A stretch of 40,774 bases of DNA from NCBI GenBank assembly GCA_041497675.1, contig JBGQGY010000017.1, positions 1 through 40,774 of the forward strand, given 5' to 3'. Of the stretch, positions 12,439 through 26,631 are shown in pieces. Origin of the DNA: a bacterium (GTDB taxonomy: Bacteria; Sysuimicrobiota; Sysuimicrobiia; Sysuimicrobiales; Humicultoraceae). The notes under the pieces are model-generated. The model saw only the letters and a list, made by a program, of their open reading frames with translations, was not told the DNA's origin and ran no database searches. The position numbers were made by a program, and so were the translations under genes. Within the stretch, counting starts at the first letter, position 1; each line of letters starts with the position of its first letter.

Positions 12439-13020
12439 TTACTGCACTCTAAATCGTTTCCTCGCGATCTCGTGCAGGGTGGTCGACACGTTTGGATCCA
12501 CGATGTTGACTTTGACTTCATATTCCCCCGAAGCCTGCCCCGGAAGCACGAAGAGAAAGGCCGTGTCCTCAAACCCTCTTCTGCGGAGCCGAGCATTTTC
12601 CGAGGTCGCGATGGCCACGCCGCGCTCCCGCTCGACCTTGTGAAGCGTCACGTTGACGAGCCGCGGTCCGGGGATGTCGATGCGCTGCCACCGTCCGGCG
12701 ACGCCGATGCGCTCGCCGGGGTCAAGCCACTCTACCGCGGGCCGGACCGCACGGGGTGGATCGCCGGTTACTTTGACGATCTCCAGCGTCGCGCGAATGG
12801 TTCCGGGCGCCTTCGGTGATCGCTCGGGTAGACCTTCCTCCCACACGTGCCACCCGATGGCCAGCAGGCCGCCGGCGCCGAAGAGTAAGATACCCGTCCA
12901 GATCAGACCGGCGCCGGTCAGCGGTCCCCGCGTCTTCCGCCCAGCTGGGGTTCCTTGCTCTGTCCCTGTGATTGCCCGCCTCCAACGGTTCGCGTGGAAG
13001 GGCCACGGTATAGATAGCAT
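12439..13020 (-). CDS. Hypothetical single-pass membrane protein (start uncertain)
   Basis: One hydrophobic segment (LIWTGILLFGAGGLLAIGW) followed by a beta-rich domain; fills the gap between the lipoprotein and the tRNA promoter. Confidence 0.6.
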   Translation of the reverse strand: MLSIPWPFHANRWRRAITGTEQGTPAGRKTRGPLTGAGLIWTGILLFGAGGLLAIGWHVWEEGLPERSPKAPGTIRATLEIVKVTGDPPRAVRPAVEWLDPGERIGVAGRWQRIDIPGPRLVNVTLHKVERERGVAIATSENARLRRRGFEDTAFLFVLPGQASGEYEVKVNIVDPNVSTTLHEIARKRFRVQ

Positions 13021-14683
13021 ACCCAACGTTTCTCAAGCGTTTCTCGGTGGCGTTCGTGCGCGTTGACAGCGTCCCGACCCGGCGCCTAGAATGACTGTTG
13101 GCGGACTGTCCTTCCCATAATGGGAGCGTAGTGTAGCCTGGTTTAACACACCTGCCTGTCACGCAGGAGATCGCGGGTTCAAATCCCGTCGCTCCCGCCA
13201 ACTCGATCCCCACGCGCGGTGTGTTTCCTCCCTTTTCCTTGAGCAACTGATTGATTTCGTTCTCAGTCGGTGGCCGGCAGGCACCAGCCCTCCGGTACAG
13301 ACACGTCCCGCCCCAGCAGGTCACCAGGTCGAAGCCATCATGCCGGGGGGGGAGGGGTAAAGTCGACACCATGGTGTTGAATGTCGCCGCCAGCCTCTCG
13401 AAGTCGTCATCGTGCAGAACCAGAATGATCGGGACCTTGCGATGAAGGTACGTGTACCCTCCAGAGAGCGACCAGTGGAACCCGCGGATCGCGACCCCGC
13501 AGACCGTTGGGTCACGGCTGAGTTCCCGGAAAGCGATGAGGTTGCCCGACTCGCGCGACAACGGCGCCAGTGAGGGAGAACGGCCGGCAAAGTACGCGGA
13601 CGTGACAGCGAGAACAATCAAGCACGCCCCGACGAGCGCGCCTGGTGAGCGCGGTCGTCGCCACCAGGCGTTCAGTTCCGACGCCACCTCAGCCACGCTC
13701 GCCGCCGCGAGCGCAATCACGATCGGCAAAACAGGGTAGATGTAGCGGTATTCCTTGTGGGGAATCGCAGAATGGGTGAGCAGGATGGCCAATGCGACCC
13801 AACCCAACAATGGACTCCGACGTGCGCCCCACGCGGCAAGCGGGATCATCGGGCCCAGCTGCCAGGTTAGGATTAGCGCATACGTATACCACGGTGCCGC
13901 CAATCCAATGATCAGGCTCCTGCCCTCGACGATGTTGACCCAGAAGTAGCGAACATAGGACTGGAACGGGTACGACCATGTGATGGCATCGAGCAATCCG
14001 AAGGCGGCGACAGGCAGGACGATCCCCGCGATCATGGGGGCAAGCCTGTCTCTCCAATTCCTCCGACAGATGTACGCCGCGGCAAGAATCACCGCTGGGG
14101 TCAGGAGCGCCCGCAGCGCAAGAGCGAGCCCGAAGAAGAGCCCCGCCACAAACAGGCGATGCCGTTCCCGGATCGAGCTCCCATACACACCCAGGTACAG
14201 CCCCGGTAGGAAGAAATGAGCAGCCACGACCTCGTTCAGCGCCCTCGGAGCGTAGTAGACGAGTTCATACCAGATCGCGCAGGTCCCCGCAGCCACGACG
14301 GCCGCAATCGTCCCACTGGTTCGATAGCTCCACATGAACGCGAACCAGACCGTGCTCAGCGAAAGCAGAGACAGGACGACGGTGATGCCCAACAAGTAGC
14401 CGGCGGACCCTGCGCCGATCGAATCGGTCGCGCGCATCACGCCAGCCAGAAACGCAGGAAACACCCACGATCTGACCCCTTCGCGATACTCCCAGGTGAC
14501 CACGCCGTAGCCGTACGCCAGGCGGTGGGCAGCTTCGCGCGTTTGGAAGACTTCATCTGGATGATTGACGTTCGTGTGCCTAACGGCGAGACCTACGCGA
14601 AGCAGCAACGCGATGACAAAAATCGCCGTCAGCAGGAGAACAATCGAGGACCGCCACTTGGTTCTTCCTTCTTCCGTTTGCAT
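12722..14683 (-). CDS. GT-C glycosyltransferase, PIG-B/Alg9 (GT22)-like mannosyltransferase; plausible protein ends near 13228 but the frame has no stop until 12722
   Basis: HPDEVFQTREAAHRLAYGYGVVTWEY..GVRSW and HKEYRYIYP match the PIG-B-type loop motifs; many TM segments; Cys-containing C-terminal domain. Confidence 0.82.
   Translation of the reverse strand: MQTEEGRTKWRSSIVLLLTAIFVIALLLRVGLAVRHTNVNHPDEVFQTREAAHRLAYGYGVVTWEYREGVRSWVFPAFLAGVMRATDSIGAGSAGYLLGITVVLSLLSLSTVWFAFMWSYRTSGTIAAVVAAGTCAIWYELVYYAPRALNEVVAAHFFLPGLYLGVYGSSIRERHRLFVAGLFFGLALALRALLTPAVILAAAYICRRNWRDRLAPMIAGIVLPVAAFGLLDAITWSYPFQSYVRYFWVNIVEGRSLIIGLAAPWYTYALILTWQLGPMIPLAAWGARRSPLLGWVALAILLTHSAIPHKEYRYIYPVLPIVIALAAASVAEVASELNAWWRRPRSPGALVGACLIVLAVTSAYFAGRSPSLAPLSRESGNLIAFRELSRDPTVCGVAIRGFHWSLSGGYTYLHRKVPIILVLHDDDFERLAATFNTMVSTLPLPPRHDGFDLVTCWGGTCLYRRAGACRPPTENEINQLLKEKGGNTPRVGIELAGATGFEPAISCVTGRCVKPGYTTLPLWEGQSANSHSRRRVGTLSTRTNATEKRLRNVGYAIYTVALPREPLEAGNHRDRARNPSWAEDAGTADRRRSDLDGYLTLRRRRPAGHRVARVGGRSTRAITEGARNHSRDAGDRQSNRRSTPCGPARGRVA
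13063..13092 (+). promoter_or_regulatory. Sigma70-type promoter for tRNA-Asp
   Basis: TTGACA (13063-68), 18 bp spacer, TAGAAT (13087-92), about 30 bp upstream of the tRNA. Confidence 0.75.
13122..13200 (+). tRNA. tRNA-Asp (GTC)
   Basis: Cloverleaf: acceptor GGGAGCG/CGCTCCC, D stem GTGT/ACAC, anticodon arm CCTGC-CTGTCAC-GCAGG, T arm GCGGG-TTCAAAT-CCCGT, discriminator G and encoded CCA. Confidence 0.97.
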
Positions 14684-14746
14684 GTTGGCCCCCGCCTTTC
14701 CTCGTGACAGCAGCATCTTCCTTCGGGGTAAACCATTCTGACGAGG

Positions 14747-14761
14747 CTACCCGCCGAGTAG
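14747..14761. promoter_or_regulatory. Palindromic operator copy (CTACCC-GCC-GAGTAG) upstream of GT22-like gene
   Basis: One mismatch to CTACCC-N3-GGGTAG; a weaker copy CTTCCT-TCG-GGGTAA lies at 14717-14731. Confidence 0.55.
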
Positions 14762-14809
14762 TTTGCGAGTAGTGGGTCAAACGGAGAGCAGGAATGCGCC
14801 GCGAAACGC

Positions 14810-16216
14810 CTAGCACGATCTGGGCTTCAGAGTCTCTGGGACAACGAAATTCCGATACACCTCACAGTTGTGCATCGCGGATCCAAACACCCCAGGCGAT
14901 CCCTGGGGACGGGGGGTGCCGACGAGCACCGGATGAACGTAGATGAAGAAGATCAACGATCCGAGGGCGACCGCCGTCGCGACGGCGACCCGCCTCGGTG
15001 GATGAGGAATCATGGTAATCGCGAAGCCGAGCGCAAGACACAGAAATGGCACGGCCGGGAGAAAGTGGAACAGATATAGCCCACGAACGTGTGTGAGCAC
15101 AAACCACGGCGCGTAGGAACACACAAACCCAATGATGATGACGGCTTCGGCAGAGCGAAGATCGCGGGAGCGGATCAGGCGCGCCGCAGCATACGCCAGG
15201 GCCGGGATCGACAGCCACCAGACAAACGGGTTGCCGAGCGCGACGATTGCCGACGCGGTTGATTCTCCAATGGCGAGGAAGTAGATCACTGGCGACTTTC
15301 CGAGAATCCAGAACCAGGGCGGAGATTGCGCCATGTCACTCCTGGACGCGACGGAGTGGAAACCGATCATCGAGACTTGCTGACGACCCACGGCGCGCAG
15401 CCACGAGCCGTCGGCCCAGGGACTCGCGAGCAGGTTCCCGGACACGGTGCCGGCGTAGCTCGCCAGATAGAGCGCGACCGGCAGCAGCACGAGCCACAGG
15501 CCGATTGACGGGCCTTCCTCGCGCACCGTTCGCAGAAGGACCGGCCCTCGGCCATTGGACCGACGGGCAGACAGTCCCCAGATGATCGTGAGGAGCAATA
15601 CGGCGACGAGCGCGAAGGCCCCGGGCCACTTGGAGGCCATCGCCGCCCCTGCCGCGCCGCCCGCGGCGATTCGCCACGGGTGGCTGAATACGCTCGCGGC
15701 ACCGCCTGACGAAGTCCTGGTCGGTCGGTCGCGGTCGTAGACGCAGAAAAGAAGGGTCGCGACGCTAAAGAGCGTGACAAACACGTCGAGCATGGCAACG
15801 CGCGAGTGGACGAAGTGCAAGAAGTCGATGGCGAGGAGTCCCGCGGCGAGTGATGCACCGGCGGTCGAACGCAGGATGCGCCTAGCGAGGAGGTACACGA
15901 TCGCGACAGTCGCCGTTCCGGCGAGGACCGAGGCTGCGCGCCATCCGAGCGGGTTGTACCCGAACGCGGCGATCCCCAGGGCGATGAGCCATTTGGCCAG
16001 CGGCGGATGGACCACGACGTGAATCGCGCCACAGAGAGAGACGGAATGCAGAAGGTACCAGCAGGCTTCCCGTGCGTAATAGTACTCGTCGTAAACGAAA
16101 CTCGCGGGATCGCCAAGCAGGGCCAGCCGGAGCGCCCCCGCGACCAGGGTGATAGCCGCGATGGCGATCCAGTCGACCGGCGCCCAGGTACGAGCCGTCT
16201 TCTGGTTGGCGGACAC
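14810..16216 (-). CDS. Protein O-mannosyltransferase-like GT-C (PMT/GT39)
   Basis: Loop-1 acidic motif FVYDEYYY, VHPPLAKWLIA, GWR, SRVAMLD.F, KW, GNP..WW, Y.PW, HFLP; multi-TM. Start GTG 16216 is tentative (ORF track starts at 16282). Confidence 0.85.
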   Translation of the reverse strand: MSANQKTARTWAPVDWIAIAAITLVAGALRLALLGDPASFVYDEYYYAREACWYLLHSVSLCGAIHVVVHPPLAKWLIALGIAAFGYNPLGWRAASVLAGTATVAIVYLLARRILRSTAGASLAAGLLAIDFLHFVHSRVAMLDVFVTLFSVATLLFCVYDRDRPTRTSSGGAASVFSHPWRIAAGGAAGAAMASKWPGAFALVAVLLLTIIWGLSARRSNGRGPVLLRTVREEGPSIGLWLVLLPVALYLASYAGTVSGNLLASPWADGSWLRAVGRQQVSMIGFHSVASRSDMAQSPPWFWILGKSPVIYFLAIGESTASAIVALGNPFVWWLSIPALAYAAARLIRSRDLRSAEAVIIIGFVCSYAPWFVLTHVRGLYLFHFLPAVPFLCLALGFAITMIPHPPRRVAVATAVALGSLIFFIYVHPVLVGTPRPQGSPGVFGSAMHNCEVYRNFVVPETLKPRSC

Positions 16217-16251
16217 TCTGCTATCTTTGGCATCAGTCCTCTCGTCGTTCC

Positions 16252-16270
16252 TCCTACCCTGAGGGTAGGA
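16252..16270. promoter_or_regulatory. Perfect 9-1-9 palindrome TCCTACCCT-G-AGGGTAGGA (putative operator)
   Basis: Read directly; lies just upstream of the Pmt-like gene. Confidence 0.7.
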
Positions 16271-16312
16271 TTCCAACTGCAACAGGCCGTCTCAGCCGCA
16301 AGGGTCCAGGGA

Positions 16313-16327
16313 CTACCCTTCGGGTAG
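16313..16327. promoter_or_regulatory. Palindromic operator copy CTACCC-TTC-GGGTAG
   Basis: Perfect 6-3-6 copy 59 bp from the previous one, in the divergent pmt/luxR intergenic region. Confidence 0.68.
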
Positions 16328-16624
16328 GAGGATTCATCTGTCTTGCGTGTAATGTAAGGCTTTGCTTTAACCGGGAGGCGGAACCCGAATTTTACTGGAT
16401 CCTGGTATCCCCGGATCCAGACTTTAGGAGGACTCACAGGGCAAAAGTCTACCAGCCCCCAGAGGCTTAGAGGCTTATGATGATGACACCGGCCCCGTGT
16501 GGGAAGGTGTTAGTGTCGTCTCTGAGGGGTTTCGGGCCGAGGAACGAAGTCGCGCTACCGCGGCCTCACATCGCGCCATATCCGTCGCGAAGCTGTTGCG
16601 CCTCCCCCAATGCCGGGGGTTGAC

Positions 16625-17035
16625 ATGGCTCAAGTCGTGCCGACGGATGTTCTCGAGCGGATAGCGCATTCGCTGTCGGCGTCCAATGGGGCGCTTTCGA
16701 AGGAAGACGGGGCCGAGTTCGGTCGAGCGCTGACGGACCTGGCGGAGAGGATCGAGTTCGCTGCCGAGATTCTCAGGCAGTTGATCGAGTTGATTAATCC
16801 CCAGGTCGTTCTCCAGGACCTGCATCTCACGCCGCGGGAGCTCGAGATGCTCACGCACCTGGCCGAAGGTTCCTCCAATGTCGAAATCGCCGGGAAGTGC
16901 TGGGTCTCAGAGAATACGGTGAAATTCCACCTGAAGAACGTCTTCCGGAAGTTGCATGTGCGAGACCGCGGTCAGGCGATGATGCTTGCACGCGCGATCA
17001 ATCGGAAACTGCATCATTCTCCCGTAGAGAAGTGA
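16625..17035 (+). CDS. LuxR/GerE-type HTH transcriptional regulator with short non-receiver N-terminus
   Basis: LTPRELEMLTHLAEGSSNVEIAGKCWVSENTVKFHLKNVFRKLHVRDR is a canonical LuxR C-terminal HTH; start 16625 or 16610. Confidence 0.9.
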   Translation: MAQVVPTDVLERIAHSLSASNGALSKEDGAEFGRALTDLAERIEFAAEILRQLIELINPQVVLQDLHLTPRELEMLTHLAEGSSNVEIAGKCWVSENTVKFHLKNVFRKLHVRDRGQAMMLARAINRKLHHSPVEK

Positions 17036-17042
17036 AGACGTA

Positions 17043-17345
17043 GTGCCCGTACTCTGGCGGCTGTTCTGGGCGCTGGCCGCCCTCCAGATCGTCGACTTGG
17101 CCTCCACGTACCTCATCATCGCCCGGGGCGGCCGAGAGGGAAACATCTTCATGCGGGACGTGATTCACACCCCACTCGCGCCCGTCGTCAAGGGGTTCGC
17201 GCTCCTCTTCCTCGCCGGACTCATTGTCAGCAGTCTCCAGCGGGGCCGGCCGGCCCCCCACCGCCTCACCGCGATCACGTGGCTGATCCTGGGAATCTAC
17301 GTTGTGACAGCCTTGAACAACGCCAGCGTCCTGATTTTTCCCTGA
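17043..17345 (+). CDS. Small membrane protein, DUF5658-like
   Basis: Three hydrophobic helices; D..STY.....GG.E.N..M and K motifs typical of that family (from memory of the family, not searched). Confidence 0.65.
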   Translation: MPVLWRLFWALAALQIVDLASTYLIIARGGREGNIFMRDVIHTPLAPVVKGFALLFLAGLIVSSLQRGRPAPHRLTAITWLILGIYVVTALNNASVLIFP

Positions 17346-17360
17346 CTTCCATCCCGACGC

Positions 17361-17379
17361 TCCTACCCTCAAGGTAGGT
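17361..17379. promoter_or_regulatory. Palindromic operator copy upstream of flp pilin (TCCTACCCTCAAGGTAGGT)
   Basis: 17/19 identical to the reverse complement of 16252-16270; a half-site AGGTAG follows at 17400-17405. Confidence 0.7.
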
Positions 17380-17505
17380 TACACGGAATCCACCCGCTCA
17401 GGTAGTAGTATCCCGCAGCCTGTCGCGGCTAGCGTGGAACGTGGACGCGACCGCGAGCGCGAGGCGGCACGCGTTTACAAACAGCTCCTTGAGAGGGGGA
17501 TGGTT

Positions 17506-17712
17506 ATGCTTTGGTACCTGCGCGCTTGGCTGGCTGAGACACTCGATGATGAGAGGGGCGCCGCGGCCACCGAGTACGTGCTCCTGATTCTCGGCGTCGT
17601 CCTCTTCATGATCGTCGCGGCATTCGGGTTGCGCGACGTGCTTGCAGCTGCCGTCACCAGTATCAGCACCTGGATCGGTAGTGTCACGCCGCCTGCAGTT
17701 CCAGGACCTTAG
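17506..17712 (+). CDS. flp: Flp family type IVb pilin
   Basis: Leader ..DDERG|AAATEY (G at -1, E+5, Y+6), hydrophobic helix, short S/T/P-rich tail; SD GAGAGGGG; start 17506 or 17500. Confidence 0.9.
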   Translation: MLWYLRAWLAETLDDERGAAATEYVLLILGVVLFMIVAAFGLRDVLAAAVTSISTWIGSVTPPAVPGP

Positions 17713-17755
17713 ATAGTTTGGCCGAGGCGGTAGCTCAGTTGGAAACGGTTGTGTG

Positions 17756-17796
17756 CGACGCGGGCCACCCCGTGTTCATTCGGGTGGCCCGCGTTG
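17756..17796 (+). terminator. Strong stem-loop between flp and tadE (attenuator or mRNA stabiliser; no U-tract)
   Basis: ACGCGGGCCACCC (17758-70) / GGGTGGCCCGCGT (17782-94) form a perfect 13-bp stem with an 11-nt loop. Confidence 0.6.
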
Positions 17797-17812
17797 GTCA
17801 TGGGACGGTCGC

Positions 17813-18244
17813 ATGAAGCAGCGCGGTCAGGCCACCGTCGAGCTGGTCCTGATGATGCCGCTCCTTCTGGCATTGCTATTTCTTCTCTTTGAGTTCGGGC
17901 GCGTCTTCGGCTCGTGGATAATCATTACCAACTCGTCGCGTGAGGGGGCCAGATATGCCGTGGTGCTGGCCCAGAATTCCACGTCGAACCCCGCCATCCA
18001 GGGGCGCGTGCAGGCGACCGCCCAGTTTCTTGACGTGGACGCGGTCCCCTGTACGGGTTCTTACAGCTCGTGCATTCAGATCAATCGGACACCCTCGACG
18101 TGTGTGGAATGCACCGTCACGGTCACTGTCAGATACCGGGTGTTTACGTTGATGCCTATTACGGGCGATATCCCGTTTCTTGGGCCCATCAATTACCCGG
18201 GGTTTATGGAAGTCGTCGGAGTTTCGACAATGCGGGCCGAATAG
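17813..18244 (+). CDS. tadE: TadE-like minor pilin
   Basis: MKQRG|QATVELVLMMPLLL...EFGR....ITNSSREGARYA. Confidence 0.88.
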   Translation: MKQRGQATVELVLMMPLLLALLFLLFEFGRVFGSWIIITNSSREGARYAVVLAQNSTSNPAIQGRVQATAQFLDVDAVPCTGSYSSCIQINRTPSTCVECTVTVTVRYRVFTLMPITGDIPFLGPINYPGFMEVVGVSTMRAE

Positions 18245-18257
18245 GAGGATCCCAGCT

Positions 18258-19157
18258 ATGAAACGCAGGTGGGTCATACCCGTCGTGTCGGCCGTCCTGG
18301 CGCTCGTCACCACTGTGGTGGTCGTCGGTTACCTGCAGACCCTCAGACGGCAGGTCACCGTGGTGGCGCCGATCAAGACCGAGGCCGTCGTCTTTGCGAG
18401 GACCGCGATCGCGGAGCGCCGGATCGTAGGTGCCACCGCCCTCGAGATCCGGCAGATCCCGGCAGAGGCGGTGCACCCGCAGGCTGCGCGGCGGATCGAA
18501 GACGTCGCCGGACGGGTCGCCGTCGCTCCCATTTTCGCCGACGAACAGGTGCTCGCGCCGAAACTGGCGCCGGTCGGTGTAAATGTTGGTCTGGCATTTG
18601 TCCTCCCCAAGGACAAGCGGGCGATGACCATTGCGGTTAATGAAGTCGTCGGAGTGGCCGGGTTTGTCTTTCCTGGAGATCGCGTGGACGTCGTGGCGAC
18701 GGTCCACAACGACAAGATCAACCTGACGAAGATCGTGCTTCAGGACGTCGAGGTCATGGCGATCGCGCAGAAGGTCGAGCAGAAGCCGGGAGAGGAGCCC
18801 CGCGTCACCACTTCGGCGACGCTGGCGCTCACGCCTCAGCAGACCGAGGCGCTGGCCGAGATCGATAACAACGGACGCGTGCGCCTGGCCCTCAGGCCCC
18901 ATGGGGTGGACGACAGGGTGCAGACTGCCGGGCAAACCATCGAGACGGCCATTGGACGTACCTCGACGGCCGTCGCTGCCGCCCCGGCTACGAGCGTGCG
19001 TACAGCCTCTGCTACCGCACGTACGCGGGCTCGGCGCGAGGCTGCAACCGTGGCGGCCGTACCGCCGCCGACCCTCAAGCCGACCGCCGTGCACAGTGTC
19101 GAGCTCTGGAGGGCGACTGCGAAATCGACGGTGCAGTTCGAGGAGCCCCGTCCATGA
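18258..19157 (+). CDS. cpaB: Flp pilus assembly protein CpaB/RcpC
   Basis: N-terminal TM, SAF-like region, KRAMTIAVNEVVGVAGFVFPGDRVDVV, LQDVEVMAI, TLALTP, LALRP; SD AGGAGG. Confidence 0.92.
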   Translation: MKRRWVIPVVSAVLALVTTVVVVGYLQTLRRQVTVVAPIKTEAVVFARTAIAERRIVGATALEIRQIPAEAVHPQAARRIEDVAGRVAVAPIFADEQVLAPKLAPVGVNVGLAFVLPKDKRAMTIAVNEVVGVAGFVFPGDRVDVVATVHNDKINLTKIVLQDVEVMAIAQKVEQKPGEEPRVTTSATLALTPQQTEALAEIDNNGRVRLALRPHGVDDRVQTAGQTIETAIGRTSTAVAAAPATSVRTASATARTRARREAATVAAVPPPTLKPTAVHSVELWRATAKSTVQFEEPRP

Positions 19158-20281
19158 CGAAACCAGCGGATCGCCAGCAAGAACGTGGGATGGCGGCGGT
19201 ATTCACCGTCCTTGGGTTTCTGGCGGTGACGCTTGTGGTCGGGATGTCGACCGATTTCGGCATTCTCATGCGGTATCGGCGCGCCATGCAGAACGCGTGC
19301 GACTCCGGGGTGCTTGCGGGAGGACTGAACCTCAGGTCCAGTCCGTCGACGGCGCCGGCGACCGCTCAGCGATATGCTGAGGACGACATGCGGCAAAACA
19401 ACATCGCCTGGAGTTCGGTGGATGCCACGACACTCGATCTCATGCCGACGCGGCCCGGGCTTGAAGGCGTCCGAGTCGAGGTCCATTCGAACGTTCCAAT
19501 GTTCTTCTTGCGGCTGGTCCGAGACACGGTACCGGTCGCCGTGGCGTGCACCGCCCGACTGGCGCCGGTCATCCTGACTCGGGGACTGGTTCCACTGGGC
19601 CTCAACTACGATGCCTGGCGCGCCTACAGCGGCACCAGCGGCTGCCTGCCGGTGATTCAGGGCGGCGTTCCGCTTTCGGCCCGAACGCCTCCGTGCGACT
19701 CGTTCACGATGACGTTGGACGTCAGCGCCAGGAGCAACCCGTGGGGGTCCGGGAACACGGGCATGGTTGCCATGCAGGCCCCCGGAGGTACAGGAGACTG
19801 CTTCGCCGACTGCCCTGTCGGCGCATCGTTTTGGAGGGACACGTTTATCCAGGGCTCCCCACAGCAGTATTGCTTTGATGAGGGCCAGACCGCTGCGGTC
19901 ACGGACTTCACGCTTGAGGGCCGATCGTGCGCGAACGTCAGGACGAGACCTGGAACCGTCAGCGGCCCGGTCAGGACCGCCGTTGACGCTCGGTGCGACA
20001 GCACGAACCCGCTGGATCGCATCGTCGTCATCGTGCTCCTGAACCCGGCGTATGCGACAGCCGGCAGCGGCTCCTACACCACGGAGATCTGGGGATTCGC
20101 GGCCTACGAATTGGATTGTTCCCAAAGGCCCACGGCCGGGGCTGGTAACGTGTCGATCCACGGGGGATTCGTCTCGTTCGTCTCCATGCAGGCCACCGGA
20201 ACCCACACGACGTTCGATACCGGTATCTACACGGTGGTGTTGTGCGAGGATAGTTCACCACAGAATACTTGTAGGTCGTAG
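19154..20281 (+). CDS. TadG-like pseudopilin / putative tip adhesin (Cys-rich)
   Basis: ERG cleavage-like site plus hydrophobic helix, D.G......R..Q.A.D...LAG Tad motif; 12 Cys; ATGA overlap with cpaB. Confidence 0.8.
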   Translation: MTKPADRQQERGMAAVFTVLGFLAVTLVVGMSTDFGILMRYRRAMQNACDSGVLAGGLNLRSSPSTAPATAQRYAEDDMRQNNIAWSSVDATTLDLMPTRPGLEGVRVEVHSNVPMFFLRLVRDTVPVAVACTARLAPVILTRGLVPLGLNYDAWRAYSGTSGCLPVIQGGVPLSARTPPCDSFTMTLDVSARSNPWGSGNTGMVAMQAPGGTGDCFADCPVGASFWRDTFIQGSPQQYCFDEGQTAAVTDFTLEGRSCANVRTRPGTVSGPVRTAVDARCDSTNPLDRIVVIVLLNPAYATAGSGSYTTEIWGFAAYELDCSQRPTAGAGNVSIHGGFVSFVSMQATGTHTTFDTGIYTVVLCEDSSPQNTCRS

Positions 20282-20290
20282 GAGGCCCAG

Positions 20291-21430
20291 GTGGCCCAGT
20301 TCGTGCGGGTTGTGGTCGCGACGCCCAACGAGGCGTCGCGGAATCTCATCCTCAGGGTCGTGAATCAGCACCAAGCGGCCCGGATCGTCGCCGAAGCCGA
20401 TACCGACGATCGACTCATGGATGTCGTGGCGTATCGGCGTCCCCAAGTGGTGTTCGTGTCCCCCGACCTGGCGGACATGCGGGGATTCGAGGTTGCCGAC
20501 AGACTGTCGCGGCGATATCCCGGTCTCTACATCGCGATGGTGTCACCGCGCAATGGCAACGACGAGCTTCGCCGGGCGATGAAGGCGGGAGCCCGGGAAT
20601 GCCTCGTTGAGCCCATCGGCGAGGACGCTGTGCTGCGCGTCATCGATGAGGCGAAAGACCTTGGGACGTCAATCGCCGAGCGGCGGGGAACCGTTCTGGG
20701 TATCATGTCCAGCAAAGGTGGCGTCGGCAAGAGCACCGTCGCCGTTAACCTGGCGATTGCGCTGAAGCAGATCAACAGCGCCACGCGTGTCGCCCTGGTG
20801 GACGGAGATCTGTACTTCGGCGACATCGCCGTGCTCCTAAACGCCAAGCCTGAGCGGACTATTCACGAGTTGAACACCGCCCTCGATGCGGAGATTGCGG
20901 ACCGGTTCCTCTATCAACACCCTACGGGCATCGAAATCCTGGCTGCGCCCCCGCAGACGGAACAGGCCGACGAGATCTCGCCGGACCGGTTCCGCATGAT
21001 CCTCGGCATCCTGCAGAGCCTCTACGACGTCGTCCTCGTGGACGCCACGGTGTCCGCCTTTGACACTATGCTGGCGACCCTCGACGTGGCGGATCAGATC
21101 GTCTTGTTGTCCACCCTCGATGTCGTGTGCCTGAAGGATATCGGCCAGATGCTGCGGATGCTCTCGAAACTTCGATTCCCGGCCCACAACGTCATGATTG
21201 CCGGCAACCGGTTCGACGAACGCGTCTCGCTCAGCCCGAAGGACGCCGAGCGGGCGCTGGGGATGCCCTTTAGCACGGTGCTGCCCCGGGACGACCGGAA
21301 CATCACGGCGGCCAATCGCGGGATTCCCCTGATTTTGAGTGAACCCGGCGCGCCGTTCGTCCAGAAAATCGTCGCATTCGCAAAGACGATCAACCTGCAG
21401 ACTGGGAGGGCCGAGCGTGTCTCTGCGTAG
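20291..21430 (+). CDS. cpaE: CpaE/TadZ pilus localisation protein (pseudo-receiver plus MinD-like ATPase)
   Basis: RRAMKAGARE, deviant Walker A KGGVGKST, LVDGDL.FGD, AANRGIP. Confidence 0.88.
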   Translation: MAQFVRVVVATPNEASRNLILRVVNQHQAARIVAEADTDDRLMDVVAYRRPQVVFVSPDLADMRGFEVADRLSRRYPGLYIAMVSPRNGNDELRRAMKAGARECLVEPIGEDAVLRVIDEAKDLGTSIAERRGTVLGIMSSKGGVGKSTVAVNLAIALKQINSATRVALVDGDLYFGDIAVLLNAKPERTIHELNTALDAEIADRFLYQHPTGIEILAAPPQTEQADEISPDRFRMILGILQSLYDVVLVDATVSAFDTMLATLDVADQIVLLSTLDVVCLKDIGQMLRMLSKLRFPAHNVMIAGNRFDERVSLSPKDAERALGMPFSTVLPRDDRNITAANRGIPLILSEPGAPFVQKIVAFAKTINLQTGRAERVSA

Positions 21431-22715
21431 ACGCCTCGAGGAGATCACGGAAACCGTTGGGTTCTGGGCCGACCCATATCAAAGCCTGAAAAACACGGTG
21501 CACCGGCGGTTGATCGAGGAGATGGGGCGGCGAGGGGCAGCCGGCACGGGTCGTGAGGAGATCGAGAGAGAAGTGGCCCGCATCCTCGACCGCGAGAACG
21601 ATCTGCTGACGCGCGAAGACCGAACCCGGCTGATCAAGGATATCGTCAATGAGGCCCTCGGGTACGGGCCGATCGAGCCCCTCATCCAGGACCCAACGGT
21701 CACTGAAGTGATGGTGAACGGTGCCAATCAGGTGTTCGTCGAACAGGGCGGGAAGATCTACCCCACGGATGTGCGGTTTCGAGACGATCAACACGTGATG
21801 CGGATCGTCGAGAAGATCGTGTCTGAGGTGGGCCGGCGCATCGATGAGAGTCAGCCGTACGTCGACGCCCGCCTGCCGGACGGCTCGCGGGTGAACGCCA
21901 TCATTCCCCCGCTGGCGCTGAACGGACCGTGCCTGACCATTAGGAAGTTCTCGCGGGAACCCTTTACCGACGCGGATCTGATCCGGTTCGGGACACTGAC
22001 CGACGAGGTCAGGGACCTGCTCGATGCGTGTGTGCGGGCCAAGCTGAATACCTTGATCTCCGGCGGGACGGGATCCGGTAAGACCACATTGCTGAACGTG
22101 GTGAGCGCGTTCATCCCGGCGAGTGAGCGGATCCTCACGATCGAGGACGCCGCCGAACTGCAACTGAAGCAGCCACACTGGGTGCGCCTTGAAACCCGCC
22201 CTCCGAACATCGAGGGCCGGGGACAGGTGACCCAGCGTGACCTGGTCCGGAACGCGCTGCGCATGCGCCCCGACCGGATCCTCGTGGGTGAGGTCCGCGG
22301 CGGGGAAGCGCTGGACATGCTGCAGGCGATGAATACCGGGCACGAAGGAAGCCTGACGACCGTCCACGCCAACACGGCTCGGGACGCGTTGGCCCGGGTC
22401 GAAACCATGGTGTTGATGGCCGGGATCGATCTGCCCACGCGGGCGATCCGGGAGCAGATGGCCTCTGCGTTCCATGTCCTGATCCACATGGCGCGGTTTA
22501 GCGATGGTACCCGGAAGATCGCCAAGATCGCTGAGGTCACGGGGATGGAGGGCGACGTCATTACCATGCAGGACATTGTCGTCTTCACACCGTCAGGCAT
22601 CTCTCCCGACGGGCAGGTCCAGGGTCGGCAAGTGTTCACCGGGCTTCGCCCAAGGTTCTACGATCGGATGAAGGCGATGGGGATCGAGCTGGCGCTTTCC
22701 ATCTTCCTTCGGTGA
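21417..22715 (+). CDS. cpaF: CpaF/TadA pilus assembly ATPase
   Basis: GYGPIEPL..DPTVTEVMVNG, VDARLPDGSRVN, GGTGSGKTT, TIEDAAEL, LRMRPDRILVGEVRG.EA, MNTGH; GTG start after GGGAGGG. Confidence 0.95.
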   Translation: MSLRRRLEEITETVGFWADPYQSLKNTVHRRLIEEMGRRGAAGTGREEIEREVARILDRENDLLTREDRTRLIKDIVNEALGYGPIEPLIQDPTVTEVMVNGANQVFVEQGGKIYPTDVRFRDDQHVMRIVEKIVSEVGRRIDESQPYVDARLPDGSRVNAIIPPLALNGPCLTIRKFSREPFTDADLIRFGTLTDEVRDLLDACVRAKLNTLISGGTGSGKTTLLNVVSAFIPASERILTIEDAAELQLKQPHWVRLETRPPNIEGRGQVTQRDLVRNALRMRPDRILVGEVRGGEALDMLQAMNTGHEGSLTTVHANTARDALARVETMVLMAGIDLPTRAIREQMASAFHVLIHMARFSDGTRKIAKIAEVTGMEGDVITMQDIVVFTPSGISPDGQVQGRQVFTGLRPRFYDRMKAMGIELALSIFLR

Positions 22716-22725
22716 GGGCGCGACA

Positions 22726-23664
22726 ATGTGGGCGCTGACTCTCGTCGTGTTCGCCACGTGCTCGTGGCTCTTCTACCTGCTCGTGGCCAGGCTCATGGGG
22801 CCGCGACTGGCGGTCGCAGACCGGCTGGCGACTGTCGGCGCGGCGTCGCAGCCGCCGGTCCAGGCACCCTTTCGGTGGAGCAGCATGCCGGCAGCAGACC
22901 GCATCATGGGGCGCCTCGACTTCTCGCGATCCCTGGAGTATCTGCTCGACGAGGCGGATCTCCCGATGAAACCGTTCGAATTTGTTCTTCTGCTCATCGT
23001 CTGCGCACTGGGCCTGACCGCGGCCGGCCTGGTCGCGGGACGCGGGACGGCCATCGCGGTGCTCATGGGCATGCTCGGGTTCCTCGCGCCCATCGTGTGG
23101 GTGCGCCTGCGGCGTCTGGGCAGGCGGGACGCGTTCAACCGTCAGATTCCAGACGCCCTTCAGGCGATCGGCAACTCGCTGCGGGCGGGTTATGGATTTG
23201 GTCAGGGGATGGGAGTCGTGGCAAAGGACCTGCCGCGCCCCATTTCTGCGGAGTTTGCTCGGGCGCTTCGCGAGATGAACCTCGGGATGACGGTCGAGGA
23301 CGTCTTGCGGGATATGACACGCCGCATGCAGAGCGTGGACTTCGAGCTCGCGGTCTCGGGCATCCTTATCAACCGTCAGGTCGGCGGCAATCTGGCCGAG
23401 CTCCTCGATCACATCACCAACACAATCCGGGAGCGCGTGAAGCTGCAGGCGTTTATCCGGGTGCTGACGGCGGAGCAGCGGCTGTCGGCCTTGGTCATCA
23501 TGGCCGTGCCGCCGGTGCTGTTCGTCATTCTCTTCGTCGCCTGGCGGGAGTACATGAAGTATATCCTCATTACGCGCATCGGCCTGGCGTTGCTGGCGGT
23601 TGCCCTGGTGATGCAGTTGGTCGGGATCTACTTCATTCGGCGCATTGTTGATATCGAGGTCTAG
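22726..23664 (+). CDS. tadB: TadB inner-membrane platform protein (T2SSF family)
   Basis: QIPDAL..IGNSLRAGY, PISAEF, QVGGNLAELL, IRER, LTAEQRLS. Confidence 0.9.
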   Translation: MWALTLVVFATCSWLFYLLVARLMGPRLAVADRLATVGAASQPPVQAPFRWSSMPAADRIMGRLDFSRSLEYLLDEADLPMKPFEFVLLLIVCALGLTAAGLVAGRGTAIAVLMGMLGFLAPIVWVRLRRLGRRDAFNRQIPDALQAIGNSLRAGYGFGQGMGVVAKDLPRPISAEFARALREMNLGMTVEDVLRDMTRRMQSVDFELAVSGILINRQVGGNLAELLDHITNTIRERVKLQAFIRVLTAEQRLSALVIMAVPPVLFVILFVAWREYMKYILITRIGLALLAVALVMQLVGIYFIRRIVDIEV

Positions 23665-23673
23665 GAGACCAAC

Positions 23674-24633
23674 GTGGAGCCTGCGCTGATCGGACTGCTG
23701 GTGTTTACCACGATCTTCCTGGGGGGCATGGCGCTGCTCAGACGCGCCCCCGAACAGGAGGCGGTTGGGGCCAGGCTGCTGGAGATCGAGCACCAGCGGT
23801 CTCCCCGGGCCATGCTGCTCACGGTGCCCTATCACCGGCGCGTCCTTCTCCCGGTCCTCAAATCCATCGTCGGCGCCGCGGCCAACCTCCTGCCTCCGAA
23901 TTCGATCGGAGAGGCGCAGAAGCGCCTCGTCATGGCCGGCCGGCGCACCGCCAACCCCGTGTTGTGGATTCTCCGCAAATGGGCCCAGGCCGGCGTGGCG
24001 GGGGCGCTTGTCTACCTCGCCGCGGGGCACTTCCGTTTGCCCGCTTTGACCCAGATCCTCGTGGCGCTCGGTGCGGGTGGGTGGGTGTATCTGTGGCCGG
24101 AGGTGCAGGTCCGGAGCGCGATTCTGGAGCGGCAGAACAAGATCGTCAAGGAACTGCCGGAGACCCTGGACCTGCTCACCATCTCGGTGGAGGCCGGACT
24201 CGGGCTCGATCAGGCGCTGGAGACCGTGACGGCGAAGCGCGCGGGGCCGCTCTCCGACGAAATCCGGGCCTACCTGGAGGAGGTCAGGCTGGGCCGCGAC
24301 CGCCAGGAAGCCCTGAGGGCCATCGGGAGCCGCACCGGCGTCGAGGACCTCATCTCCTTGGCCGCGACCCTGACCCAGGCGATGGAGTTCGGGGTGAGCA
24401 TTGGGCTCGTCCTGCGCATCCAGGCGGACGCGGTACGCACGCGCCGGCGCCAGCGGATCGAAGAGCATGCTATGAAAGCCCCGGTCAAGATGTTGTTCCC
24501 GCTGATCTTCCTGATCCTACCGGCACTGTTCGTCGTCGTCGCGGGGCCCGGGTTGATCAGGGCCTACGAGGAGTTCGTCAAACCCACGGGGCCGTCGCAA
24601 TTTAGGCCTCCGGCACAGCAAATTCGTCGATGA
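23674..24633 (+). CDS. tadC: TadC inner-membrane platform protein
   Basis: ELPETLDLLTISVEAGLGLDQAL, LR.QA...R.RRRQRIEE.AMKAPVKMLFPL. Confidence 0.92.
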   Translation: MEPALIGLLVFTTIFLGGMALLRRAPEQEAVGARLLEIEHQRSPRAMLLTVPYHRRVLLPVLKSIVGAAANLLPPNSIGEAQKRLVMAGRRTANPVLWILRKWAQAGVAGALVYLAAGHFRLPALTQILVALGAGGWVYLWPEVQVRSAILERQNKIVKELPETLDLLTISVEAGLGLDQALETVTAKRAGPLSDEIRAYLEEVRLGRDRQEALRAIGSRTGVEDLISLAATLTQAMEFGVSIGLVLRIQADAVRTRRRQRIEEHAMKAPVKMLFPLIFLILPALFVVVAGPGLIRAYEEFVKPTGPSQFRPPAQQIRR

Positions 24634-24671
24634 GTCGACATCACAGTTCCCTTGGAGGAGGCTCGACAGCC

Positions 24672-26171
24672 ATGCGCTCCATAACGGCGGCCCTTCTCAT
24701 CAGCTTCATGATCATCGTCATCGCTCCGAGTGCGCACGCCGACGAGACGGTGATGATTCAGGTCAATCATGGGATGCTGCTGAAGGTCAGCAATGTCGAG
24801 CGAGTCGTCGTCGCAGCGCCGGATATTGCCGACGTGAACATCATCACACGTAGCCAGTTGATGCTCGTCGCCAAGAAGGTGGGCGAAACGACGATCAGCG
24901 TGTGGGATGCCAGAGGCTATACTGCCTATCGGGTGGTCATTGCCGGCGCTCCCGCGACCGACATTATCAAGGCCCTGGGCGAGGTCTTGCGGGAGCCGAG
25001 CGTGGTCGTCAAGGTTGTGGGCGACGCGATTGTGCTCGAAGGGAGCGTGAAGACCAGCGTGGACAAGGCCCGAGCCGAGAGCATCGCGTCCGCGTTTGGT
25101 CGAAAAGTCATCAACGTGCTGAGGGTTGAGCAGGTGACCCCGCCGCCGCCCTCGACGACGCAGGTCTTGGAAGCGCAGGTGCTGGACGCGCTGAAGGGCC
25201 TGCCGGTGGTCATCAAAGTCATCCGGAACTCTTCCAATGAAGATACGATTCTTATCGAAGGAACAGTAGCCAACCAAGCCGAGTTGACCCGACTCGAGAC
25301 GATTGTCAAGGCCCTCGTGAAGAACGCCGTGTTGCTCGTTCGTGTTCGGGACCCCCGCCAGATCCGGGTCGATGCCACGTTTGTGGAGATCGACCGGCAG
25401 GCCCTACAGCAGATGGGCGTCGAGTGGGGGGGAGGGAGTCCGGCGACTACGCCCGCTCCTGGTGCCCCTGTTCTTGCACCCTCCATCACCGATCCGTTCG
25501 CGTTCCACTTCGGCTTCTTCGATCCGAGCAATCCGTTCACTCCCCTACAGGTCTTGGTGGCCCGGTTGCGCCTGCTGGAGTCGCGTGGCGTGGCCAGGGT
25601 ACTGTCCAACCCGCGCCTGGTGGTGTTGGAGGGCCGGCCCGGCAAGCTGGTGGTCGGCGGCGAGCTCCCGGTTCCGATCGTTGGCGCCGATCGCACGGTC
25701 ACCGTCCAGTTCAAGGAATTCGGCATCCGGCTCGAATTCTGCGTGAATTCGATCCTGCGGAAGCAGAACGACCAGCTCGACTGCGTGCGGGGCCAGGAGT
25801 TCGGCACCGGTGACGGCGTCACCATGGACCTGCGCACCGAGGTGAGCAGCCTCGACTTTGCCAACGCAATCGTCGCGGCGGGCTTTCTCATCCCCACGAT
25901 CAAGAAGCGTGAAGTGCAGACGATGATCATCATGCGCCCGGGCGAGTTCCTGGTGCTGGGCGGCCTGATCCAACGCGAGGTCAGCCAGAATGTTTCCAGG
26001 ATTCCTCTCCTCGGCGATCTTCCCATTCTCGGCGCCCTGTTTCGCAGCACCAGGTTCCAACGCGGGGAAACGGAACTCGTGATCTTCGTGTCGCCGAGCG
26101 TTGTGGCGCCGACCAGAGAGCAGCCGGCGGTCCCTGCCGAACCATCGCCGGTACCGTCGCCAGCGCCGTAG
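24672..26171 (+). CDS. cpaC: CpaC/RcpA-type outer-membrane secretin with BON-like domains
   Basis: Signal peptide (AHA-D), PDIADV..GETT N-domain, VGGELPVP, FKEFGI.L, LGGLI, IPLLGDLPILGALFRS..FQ..ETELVIFVSP. Confidence 0.92.
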   Translation: MRSITAALLISFMIIVIAPSAHADETVMIQVNHGMLLKVSNVERVVVAAPDIADVNIITRSQLMLVAKKVGETTISVWDARGYTAYRVVIAGAPATDIIKALGEVLREPSVVVKVVGDAIVLEGSVKTSVDKARAESIASAFGRKVINVLRVEQVTPPPPSTTQVLEAQVLDALKGLPVVIKVIRNSSNEDTILIEGTVANQAELTRLETIVKALVKNAVLLVRVRDPRQIRVDATFVEIDRQALQQMGVEWGGGSPATTPAPGAPVLAPSITDPFAFHFGFFDPSNPFTPLQVLVARLRLLESRGVARVLSNPRLVVLEGRPGKLVVGGELPVPIVGADRTVTVQFKEFGIRLEFCVNSILRKQNDQLDCVRGQEFGTGDGVTMDLRTEVSSLDFANAIVAAGFLIPTIKKREVQTMIIMRPGEFLVLGGLIQREVSQNVSRIPLLGDLPILGALFRSTRFQRGETELVIFVSPSVVAPTREQPAVPAEPSPVPSPAP

Positions 26172-26196
26172 CGGCCACAGCCACAGGGGGCAGTCG

Positions 26197-26631
26197 ATGT
26201 ACGTCGTGAACAGGACGCGCAGCACCTATCTAGGGGTGGATATTCGACTGGCGAATTCGTTCCGGTCACGCCTCATGGGACTGCAGGCCTACCGGGAGAT
26301 TCCATTTGGCGACGGCGTCTGGCTGGTGCCGTGCAACTCGATCGTGACGTTTCGGATGCGGTTTGCTATTGACGCGGTCTTTCTGGATAGGGACGGTCGC
26401 GTCGTGCGCGTCGTGGAGAACATTTCGCCTGGGAAAGTCGTGTGGCCCATTCGCAGGGCGCACTCGGTCCTCGAGTTGCCCGCGGGCGTGGTGCGCAGCA
26501 GCGAGACTCGGGACGGAGACATGATCGAGTGCATCGATGACGTCGTGCGCCCGGTCCGGTCGCGCGACGGGCAAGCCGGGACGTCCCGTGCGTCGACTGA
26601 GAAGGAGGCGTCGCCGCTCGGCCGGGATTGA
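26197..26631 (+). CDS. DUF192 family protein (commonly Tad-associated)
   Basis: A.SF..RL.GL, PCNSI.TF.MRFAID.VFLD, SVLELPAG. Confidence 0.85.
   Translation: MYVVNRTRSTYLGVDIRLANSFRSRLMGLQAYREIPFGDGVWLVPCNSIVTFRMRFAIDAVFLDRDGRVVRVVENISPGKVVWPIRRAHSVLELPAGVVRSSETRDGDMIECIDDVVRPVRSRDGQAGTSRASTEKEASPLGRD

Follow-up and report, generated by a model that had tools for sequence, protein, structure and literature searches.

In Pseudomonas aeruginosa group IV, the GT-C glycosyltransferase TfpW is encoded beside the pilin gene (pilA-tfpW-tfpX) and O-glycosylates the type IVa pilin, linking a lipid-borne monosaccharide to pilin Ser/Thr (10.1101/2020.04.19.049825; here, as for all papers cited below, statements refer to the parts of the text that were covered). 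Protein O-mannosylation in actinobacteria involves Ppm1, Pmt (GT39) and PimE (GT87) (PMC8698208, PMC11727336, PMC12331936, PMC12757957), and with Pmt and PimE/GT87 a pair of an initiating and an elongating enzyme is already known there (PMC12757957). For the Tad (type IVc) pili, the Flp1 pilin of Aggregatibacter actinomycetemcomitans is glycosylated (PMC6182317). The periplasmic conduit RcpC has been implicated in this modification by preliminary work only (PMC12307814), and no transferase is named in the covered text of either paper. Here, we analysed a stretch of 40,774 nucleotides (contig JBGQGY010000017.1, C17 in our numbering; hereafter the window), on which the gene of a Pmt-type enzyme lies back to back with a Tad pilus operon. 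In the explanation that we favour with moderate confidence, this enzyme would be a LuxR-co-regulated, exchangeable GT-C that O-glycosylates the tail of the Flp pilin, similar to TfpW in its arrangement and to Pmt in its chemistry. In the main texts that we searched, no transferase is named for a Tad locus, nor was such a locus found described in the covered literature pairing Tad or Flp with a mannosyltransferase or glycosyltransferase.

The genome, that of an uncultured bacterium, has 3.97 Mb, 66% GC and a completeness of 98.6%. Its lineage was inferred to be the phylum CSP1-3/Sysuimicrobiota, of which 94 genomes were searched. The phylum was defined in PMC11604079, where the name Candidatus Fervidifonticultor also occurs; the words 'pili', 'pilus' and 'tad' are absent from the main text of the CSP1-3 phylum papers as far as covered. 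The closest titled CpaE locus (L073) is from Candidatus Fervidifonticultor, with 66% identity to the CpaE of the window, and the sequencing runs containing this stretch are sediment metagenomes.

Like the Caulobacter cpa and Aggregatibacter tad clusters, the locus carries flp, tadE, cpaB, tadG, cpaE, cpaF, tadB, tadC and cpaC, in this order on the plus strand, so that the Tad set of Flp, TadE/G, CpaB, CpaE, CpaF, TadB/C and secretin is complete in one place. Unlike these, it lacks cpaA/tadV and adds luxR and DUF5658 in front of flp, DUF192 behind cpaC, and a slot for GT-C genes, which on the minus strand holds pmt followed by gt22, the latter ending against a tRNA-Asp gene (Table 1). This content, order and orientation had been read correctly from the sequence alone, and Pfam supports all stated products except Flp (GerE/LuxR, DUF5658, TadE, RcpC/CpaB, Tad, CpaE-type, T2SSE, two T2SSF, secretin plus BON, DUF192). 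Flp, which has no Pfam match, was identified by its prepilin motif G|xxxxEY and by alignment with 13 relatives. No dedicated prepilin peptidase CpaA/TadV is encoded in the locus, and the sole PF01478/A24 match in the genome is pilD on contig C21. The sequence-only reading had also set the Aggregatibacter modification apart as an unrelated, RcpC-associated route; this is no route of an enzyme, as RcpC is a conduit, and its homologue CpaB is part of the present operon.

Compared with TfpW, the arrangement shares a GT-C that adjoins the pilin gene and is accessory and strain-variable. TfpW differs in that it serves type IVa pili, transfers D-Araf oligomers, is encoded co-directionally after pilA and bears a TPR domain, for which the window enzymes gave no Pfam match; the window instead has a Tad pilus and a divergently oriented gene with a shared operator for a GT39 enzyme of predicted activity. 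With the actinobacterial Pmts, the window enzyme shares family, fold and catalytic residues, and the genome contains a GT2-GtrA candidate for the donor synthase. However, the actinobacterial Pmts serve monoderm cells in a general role and are not tied to a pilus in the literature covered, whereas the window Pmt is a second, accessory paralogue in a secretin-bearing genome, lies inside a pilus regulon and differs in pocket residues.

The most likely start of the window Pmt is the GTG at 16219, which yields 469 aa and matches homologues of 80-84% identity. The profiles proposed for confirmation all scored above their cut-offs, with 73 bits for PF02366 (cut-off 22.7) and 63 bits for PF16192 (32.4) in Pmt and with PF03901 in GT22; Pmt also matches PF13231. 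Sequence matches of the window Pmt in the PDB were Pmt enzymes only. The predicted model (pLDDT 90, pTM 0.92) superimposes with a TM score of 0.73-0.76 on Pmt4 and Pmt1-2 and of 0.53-0.54 on ArnT, and by this model the enzyme has a Pmt fold and not that of ArnT or an OST. D74, D176, R441 and Y444, which are essential in the PMT of M. tuberculosis (MtPMT; PMC12331936; catalytic motif residues are also named in PMC8698208), correspond to D44, D145, R379 and Y382 when mapped by motif order. The closest named relatives are Actinomycetota Pmts (about 45% identity), and the genome's own second Pmt, a housekeeping enzyme on contig C154, is more distant (35%). With the actinobacterial equivalog NF058602 the window Pmt scored 141.9 bits, below the cut-off of 800, and it lacks the H-x-aromatic pocket residues that precede the QSxxWxW motif in enzymes of this type.

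This deviation lies in a segment (about residues 278-303) whose equivalent lines the acceptor pocket of MtPMT (PMC12331936). Among five close homologues, residues 284-303 form the most variable part of the protein (0.52 compared to 0.19 overall), and of the 12 intragenic pmt differences listed from other sequencing runs, 7 concern codons 278-296, several of these affecting the third base. As the segment lines the acceptor pocket, its divergence may reflect an altered specificity or, alternatively, partial decay.

We then compared the slot upstream of flp across loci of the window's Tad subtype in which it is readable. This left 14 loci. The slot lies beyond the contig in G001, G019, G023 and L166; the contig ends before it in L153-L155, L157, L160-L162, L164, L165, L168, L170, L173 and L174; L175 has the same gene content as G069, and L073-L075 repeat loci already read. 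G070 and G071 were dropped, as their cpaE match is an orphan gene and only the second Tad subtype is present. In 9 of the 14 loci, the slot next to the pilin gene holds a GT-C, as for TfpW. Pmts occupy it in the window, G009, G042 and L156, and PMT_2-type enzymes in G038, G067, G069, L169 and L172. By comparison, PF13231 has 10 matches among about 4061 called genes of the window's genome. The PMT_2-type enzyme has a GT-C fold (pLDDT of the model 67) and gives no alignment with the Pmt profile. It was found in 3 of the 94 genomes, Tad-adjacent each time (these three rows were in the query alignment), and its gene is often followed by more GT-C genes and a GT2. The conserved unit is the Tad operon with a swappable GT-C slot, which in the window is taken by a true Pmt.

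A quick tree built from 51 Pmts groups all four Tad-linked enzymes in one clade of 15 rows (SH-aLRT 91), which also contains the copies of G001 and G019 and the second G042 copy, while the housekeeping Pmts form a clade of their own (SH-aLRT 100) and the Pmts of G002 and G066 lie outside the Tad-linked clade on weak forks. All five clade-holding genomes possess this Tad system, as compared to 7 of the 34 genomes of the family (hypergeometric p = 7.5e-5, a value overstated by kinship, with G001 counted as positive through a cpaC-DUF192 fragment only). When G002 (59% complete) is included, five of six genomes with the Pmt have the Tad system. The linkage of transferases to tad loci in relatives therefore divides the earlier proposal: it is present for Pmt, by slot and by clade, and missing for GT22, which occurs in one of the 94 genomes.

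Pmt and the pilus operon also appear to share a regulatory element. The palindrome CTACCYNNNRGGTAG, a motif defined from the window sites themselves, has three exact copies in the 3.97 Mb of the genome, all at this locus, where 0.21 would be expected under an order-3 Markov model. The operator that the sequence-only reading had proposed for both flp and the transferase genes was thereby recovered, with one further copy of one mismatch in front of gt22 (Table 1). Eight one-mismatch copies occur on other contigs, six of them intragenic. With a looser pattern, related sites were found before flp, luxR or a GT gene in G009, G042, G004, G019, L156, L158, L163 and L167, and were weak or missing in G038, G067, G069, L169 and L172; in L156, an exact palindrome lies downstream of pmt, comparable to the window site at 14747. 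From its distribution, the palindrome is a site of the Tad regulon that is also present at loci lacking a GT-C, and the LuxR protein of the locus is its likely binder. Together, the conserved slot, the co-occurrence, the locus-specific operator and the intact active site tie Pmt to the Tad locus. The back-to-back arrangement of pmt and the Tad genes, the palindrome, unique to this locus in its exact form, and the position kept in several relatives thus suggest that Pmt likely glycosylates the pilin.

Our favoured explanation would comprise the following steps. LuxR would bind the CTACC-N5-GGTAG sites seen before pmt/luxR and before flp, and would thereby probably turn on pmt together with the pilus. 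The product of a housekeeping GT2 gene with a GtrA/DPMS domain (C154:597-1688), located near the housekeeping Pmt, is the candidate synthase for the polyprenyl-phosphate sugar, and PilD would mature Flp. From the lipid carrier, Pmt would then transfer one sugar unit, likely mannose or another hexose, to Ser/Thr of the Pro-rich Flp tail. This would occur before assembly, on the periplasmic tail of Flp in the inner-membrane pool, and possibly also on the linkers of CpaB and the secretin. By analogy to TfpW/TfpO, the sugar coat might alter adhesion or mask phage binding sites; in type IVa pili, pilin glycosylation acts as a shield against phages (10.1101/150227). The slot would be swappable, with a different GT-C in another family and GT22 as a recent, probably impaired passenger. 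A preference of MtPMT for Pro-rich S/T stretches in unstructured termini (PMC12331936) fits the tail of the window Flp, and across loci Flp tails carry a mean of 3.9 S/T at nine GT-linked loci compared to 2.3 at three GT-less ones (p = 0.07). Mannose is a plausible sugar, and the genome encodes a PGI/PMI.

Several observations weigh against this explanation. No GT-C is found in the slot of 5 of the 14 loci (G004, G029, L158/L159, L167, L163/L171; three of the five near a contig edge), and in G004 and G023 the pilus comes with no Pmt of the Tad-linked clade; the enzyme is therefore dispensable. Conversely, the clade members of G019 and the second copy of G042 lie away from Tad, and G002 and G066, which encode related Pmts, gave no match to this Tad system. 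The acceptor pocket differs at two conserved positions (D295, His in 42 of 50 sequences; A297, Tyr in 38 of 50), and in MtPMT the exchange W355A, at the presumed equivalent site, lowers activity by 70% (PMC12331936). Only three S/T are found among the last 20 residues of the G009 Flp, and a single one in one Flp of L172. In Caulobacter, no modification is seen on the Tad filament (PMC10710030). On the donor side, a mannose-1-phosphate guanylyltransferase-like gene scores below cut-off, and neither type I nor type II phosphomannose isomerase was found when searched for in the genome, so that a supply of GDP-mannose is only suggested by the gene content. Finally, the operator copies in the divergent region may serve luxR alone.

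Some of these points would agree with a broader role, in which Pmt is co-regulated with the pilus and acts as a general O-glycosyltransferase of the adherent state on many exported S/T/P-rich proteins (CpaB, secretin, adhesins, lipoproteins), with Flp as a minor target or none. Characterised bacterial Pmts have many targets (PMC11727336, PMC12757957), and a clade with members away from Tad points in the same direction, as do the tracts themselves. All S/T/P/A-rich tracts quoted in the sequence-only reading are present in the translations; as specific evidence they are weak, being only mildly unusual. Among the 641 exported-like proteins of the genome, 20% match the tract of Flp, compared to 4.8% for CpaC and 2.3% for CpaB, so that the Flp tract is the least rare, and CpaB linkers look alike at loci without any GT-C. 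Such a broad role is rather unlikely in our view, since the genome already has a separate housekeeping Pmt, the exact operator occurs at no other locus, and a different GT-C takes the same place beside flp in another family.

A further alternative is that the transferase genes, in a variable slot next to the Tad island and tRNA-Asp, are passengers whose products act on surface polysaccharide or lipids, as three-component GT-C systems do. In the same-genus genome G001, a single contig bears both tRNA-Asp and pmt, and the 21.6 kb separating them are occupied by other genes; gt22, pmt and luxR of the window rank at the 3rd-8th percentile in GC content at third codon positions; and systems of GT-C, GT2 and GtrA commonly modify glycans (PMC11127046). 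We judge this improbable: in G009, the Tad locus and its Pmt are far from tRNA-Asp (about 2.84 Mb versus 0.23 Mb on C1), the modelled fold is Pmt-like and not ArnT-like, and the linkage of Pmt and Tad persists despite a rearrangement of luxR.

The sequence-only reading had proposed that Pmt and GT22 form a dedicated pathway, with Pmt initiating and GT22 elongating a mannose chain on pilus proteins. GT22 does match its family (PF03901, 105 bits, 7e-30; weak PDB match 9s6t), keeps D54-E55 and most conserved columns, and is preceded by the one-mismatch operator. Pmt with PimE provides a precedent, and other Tad loci have two to five consecutive GT-C genes (L172, L169, G069). However, the gene does not end near 13228 as had been thought. 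No stop codon is present there, and the frame continues to 12722 (664 aa). Termination 11 residues past the EIN motif, which corresponds to codon 497, is seen in 99 of 119 homologues; the window has a sense codon at this place, and instead of the C-terminus intact in bacterial GT22 homologues a tail of 167 aa follows, running into the tRNA gene, whose sigma-70 promoter (11 of 12 positions matched) faces the frame. Contigs of three other sequencing runs cross the GT22/tRNA junction unchanged, and the long contig of a fourth run starts at 13228; because of the three crossing contigs, an assembly error was rejected as the origin of the read-through.

GT22 is also isolated in its distribution. No other Tad locus read contains it, the closest named homologues are acidobacterial proteins (51-57% identity), no relatives were found in viral contigs or plasmids, and the literature searched gave nothing on GT22/PIG-B in bacteria. 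In G009, an O-antigen-ligase-like gene follows Pmt instead. The pair of Pmt and GT22 as a conserved feature of Tad loci was thus rejected, and a two-enzyme pathway dedicated to this pilus is highly improbable. Given the presence of GT22 in a single genome and the other genes at the same place in G001, GT22 is a recent occupant of the variable slot, and it may be impaired.

Returning to the exchangeable Flp-modifying GT-C that we favour, a more general form can be offered tentatively: Tad pili of CSP1-3 may carry a plug-in glycosylation slot under the control of the pilus regulator, into which one family would have recruited a true Pmt with an acceptor loop rebuilt for the Flp tail, and another family a different GT-C. 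If true, Flp glycosylation would gain a named enzyme and the Pmt family a member dedicated to a pilin, both in a diderm, and the rapid change of loop and slot would be in line with an arms race against phages that bind the pilus. Modification of the pilin by Pmt, if true, would add a substrate-dedicated paralogue from a diderm to what is known of Pmts and would widen pilin glycosylation from type IVa to Tad pili. Most candidates for Tad-linked transferases are GT-Cs of unknown chemistry; the Pmt family is known to modify proteins, and the proposal is therefore testable in the existing reporter platform of Pmt-null Corynebacterium glutamicum (PMC11727336).

Table 1 Coordinates of the pilus locus and its flanking features in the window
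Position	Strand	Feature	Basis
12722..13225	-	GT22 read-through tail, 167 codons, antisense to tRNA-Asp, no predicted transmembrane segment	Frame reading
13122..13200	+	tRNA-Asp(GTC), sigma-70 promoter close to consensus (13063-13092); bounds the variable slot on the left	ARAGORN, Rfam
13226..14716	-	Accessory GT-C of the GT22 type (PIG-B/Alg9-like); 497 codons conserved, with D54-E55 intact and not followed by a stop	Pfam, alignment
14747..14761	.	Operator copy with one mismatch, between Pmt stop and GT22 start, 30 bp before GT22 start	
14810..16219	-	Pmt/GT39 putative protein O-glycosyltransferase, 469 aa; D44-E45, D145, R379-x-x-Y382 intact; segment ~278-303 divergent and variable	Pfam, alignments, model
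16254..16268	.	Operator copy, exact, 35 bp upstream of Pmt start	
16313..16327	.	Operator copy, exact, divergent Pmt/luxR region	
16610..17035	+	LuxR/GerE-family regulator without receiver domain	Pfam; orthologue at most loci of the subtype
17043..17345	+	DUF5658 small membrane protein, usually between GT slot and flp	Pfam, relatives
17363..17405	.	Two operator copies before flp, an exact one at 17363 and a weaker one at 17390	
17506..17712	+	Flp prepilin; mature form of 50 aa beginning at 17560; Pro-rich tail with 6 Ser/Thr among the last 20 residues	Motif, alignment
17813..18244	+	TadE pseudopilin	Pfam
18258..19157	+	CpaB/RcpC, C-terminal linker S/T/P/A-rich	Pfam; TIGR03177 above cut-off
19154..20281	+	TadG-like protein	Pfam
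20291..21430	+	CpaE/TadZ	Pfam
21417..22715	+	CpaF/TadA ATPase	Pfam
22726..24633	+	TadB and TadC platform proteins	Pfam
24672..26171	+	CpaC/RcpA secretin, BON domain, Pro/Ser/Thr-rich linkers	Pfam
26197..26631	+	DUF192	Pfam

GT-C genes also occur near pilus genes of other types. In the second Tad subtype, no GT-C adjoins in five loci (G029 C10, G030, G038 C20, G070, G071; some contigs short). Of 76 distant CpaE loci, 17 include a GT-C-like gene no more than 10 kb away (58 of 82 candidate open reading frames called by Pfam, the others by BLAST). Fourteen of the 17 share an Anaerolineales-type layout of GT87 and PMT_2 genes, a two-component system and flp, and were counted as one lineage because of this common layout. 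In this type (L081, L086, L097, L099, L108, L115, L130), the Tad genes are preceded on their own strand by GT-C-like genes, four or five in number (GT87, PMT_2, unnamed), as well as by flp and genes for a response regulator and a kinase-like protein.

Type IVa loci of CSP1-3 contain a Pmt and GT2 plus GtrA, with GT-C genes directly behind pilA (G004, G007, G009, G023), and contig C198 of the genome itself shows the order pilA-pilA-GT-C; this agrees with the explanation that we favour. The type IVa locus of the family (L037, L038, L054-L059, L178; in the own genome C154 and C198, i.e. L036 and L194) combines the housekeeping Pmt, GT2 plus GtrA, a MoxR-DUF58-transglutaminase trio and several GT-Cs. 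In G007, two pilA-like genes are each followed by a PMT_2-type gene of their own. No pilus genes were found near the housekeeping Pmt of G033 and G036 within the 20 kb read. Away from Tad, the Pmts of G002 and G066 either have lasso-peptide-like neighbours (Transglut_core3, NTP_transf_5) or belong to a GT-C/GT2 cluster (L034:1-4700 and L176).

Within the window, a perfect 13-bp hairpin without a T tract lies between flp and tadE (17758-17794) and could provide flp message in excess over the remaining operon. A short stretch after the flp stop (17721-17745), which we take to resemble the 5' part of a tRNA, has no ARAGORN or Rfam call. A second ARAGORN call, tRNA-Ala inside tadB (22776-22865), was rejected, as Rfam does not support it.

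DUF5658 adjoins flp or a GT-C in most loci of the subtype and was not seen in G004, G019 and G029; it is possibly an accessory of the pilin or of the transferase. The repeat search and the Atlas search of DUF5658 gave nothing further. On contig C142 of G019 (L052), the Tad operon has no secretin gene between tadC and DUF192, and the C-terminus of its CpaB is longer. The orphan cpaE genes of G070 (L069:2987-4267) and G071 (L071:202-1470), 50-52% identical to that of the window and devoid of tad neighbours, are possibly remnants of a lost locus. Tandem arrays of three to four flp paralogues occur at L065:16541-17458, L067:15833-16591 and L072:1832-2336, and G067 has two further flp paralogues elsewhere on the contig.

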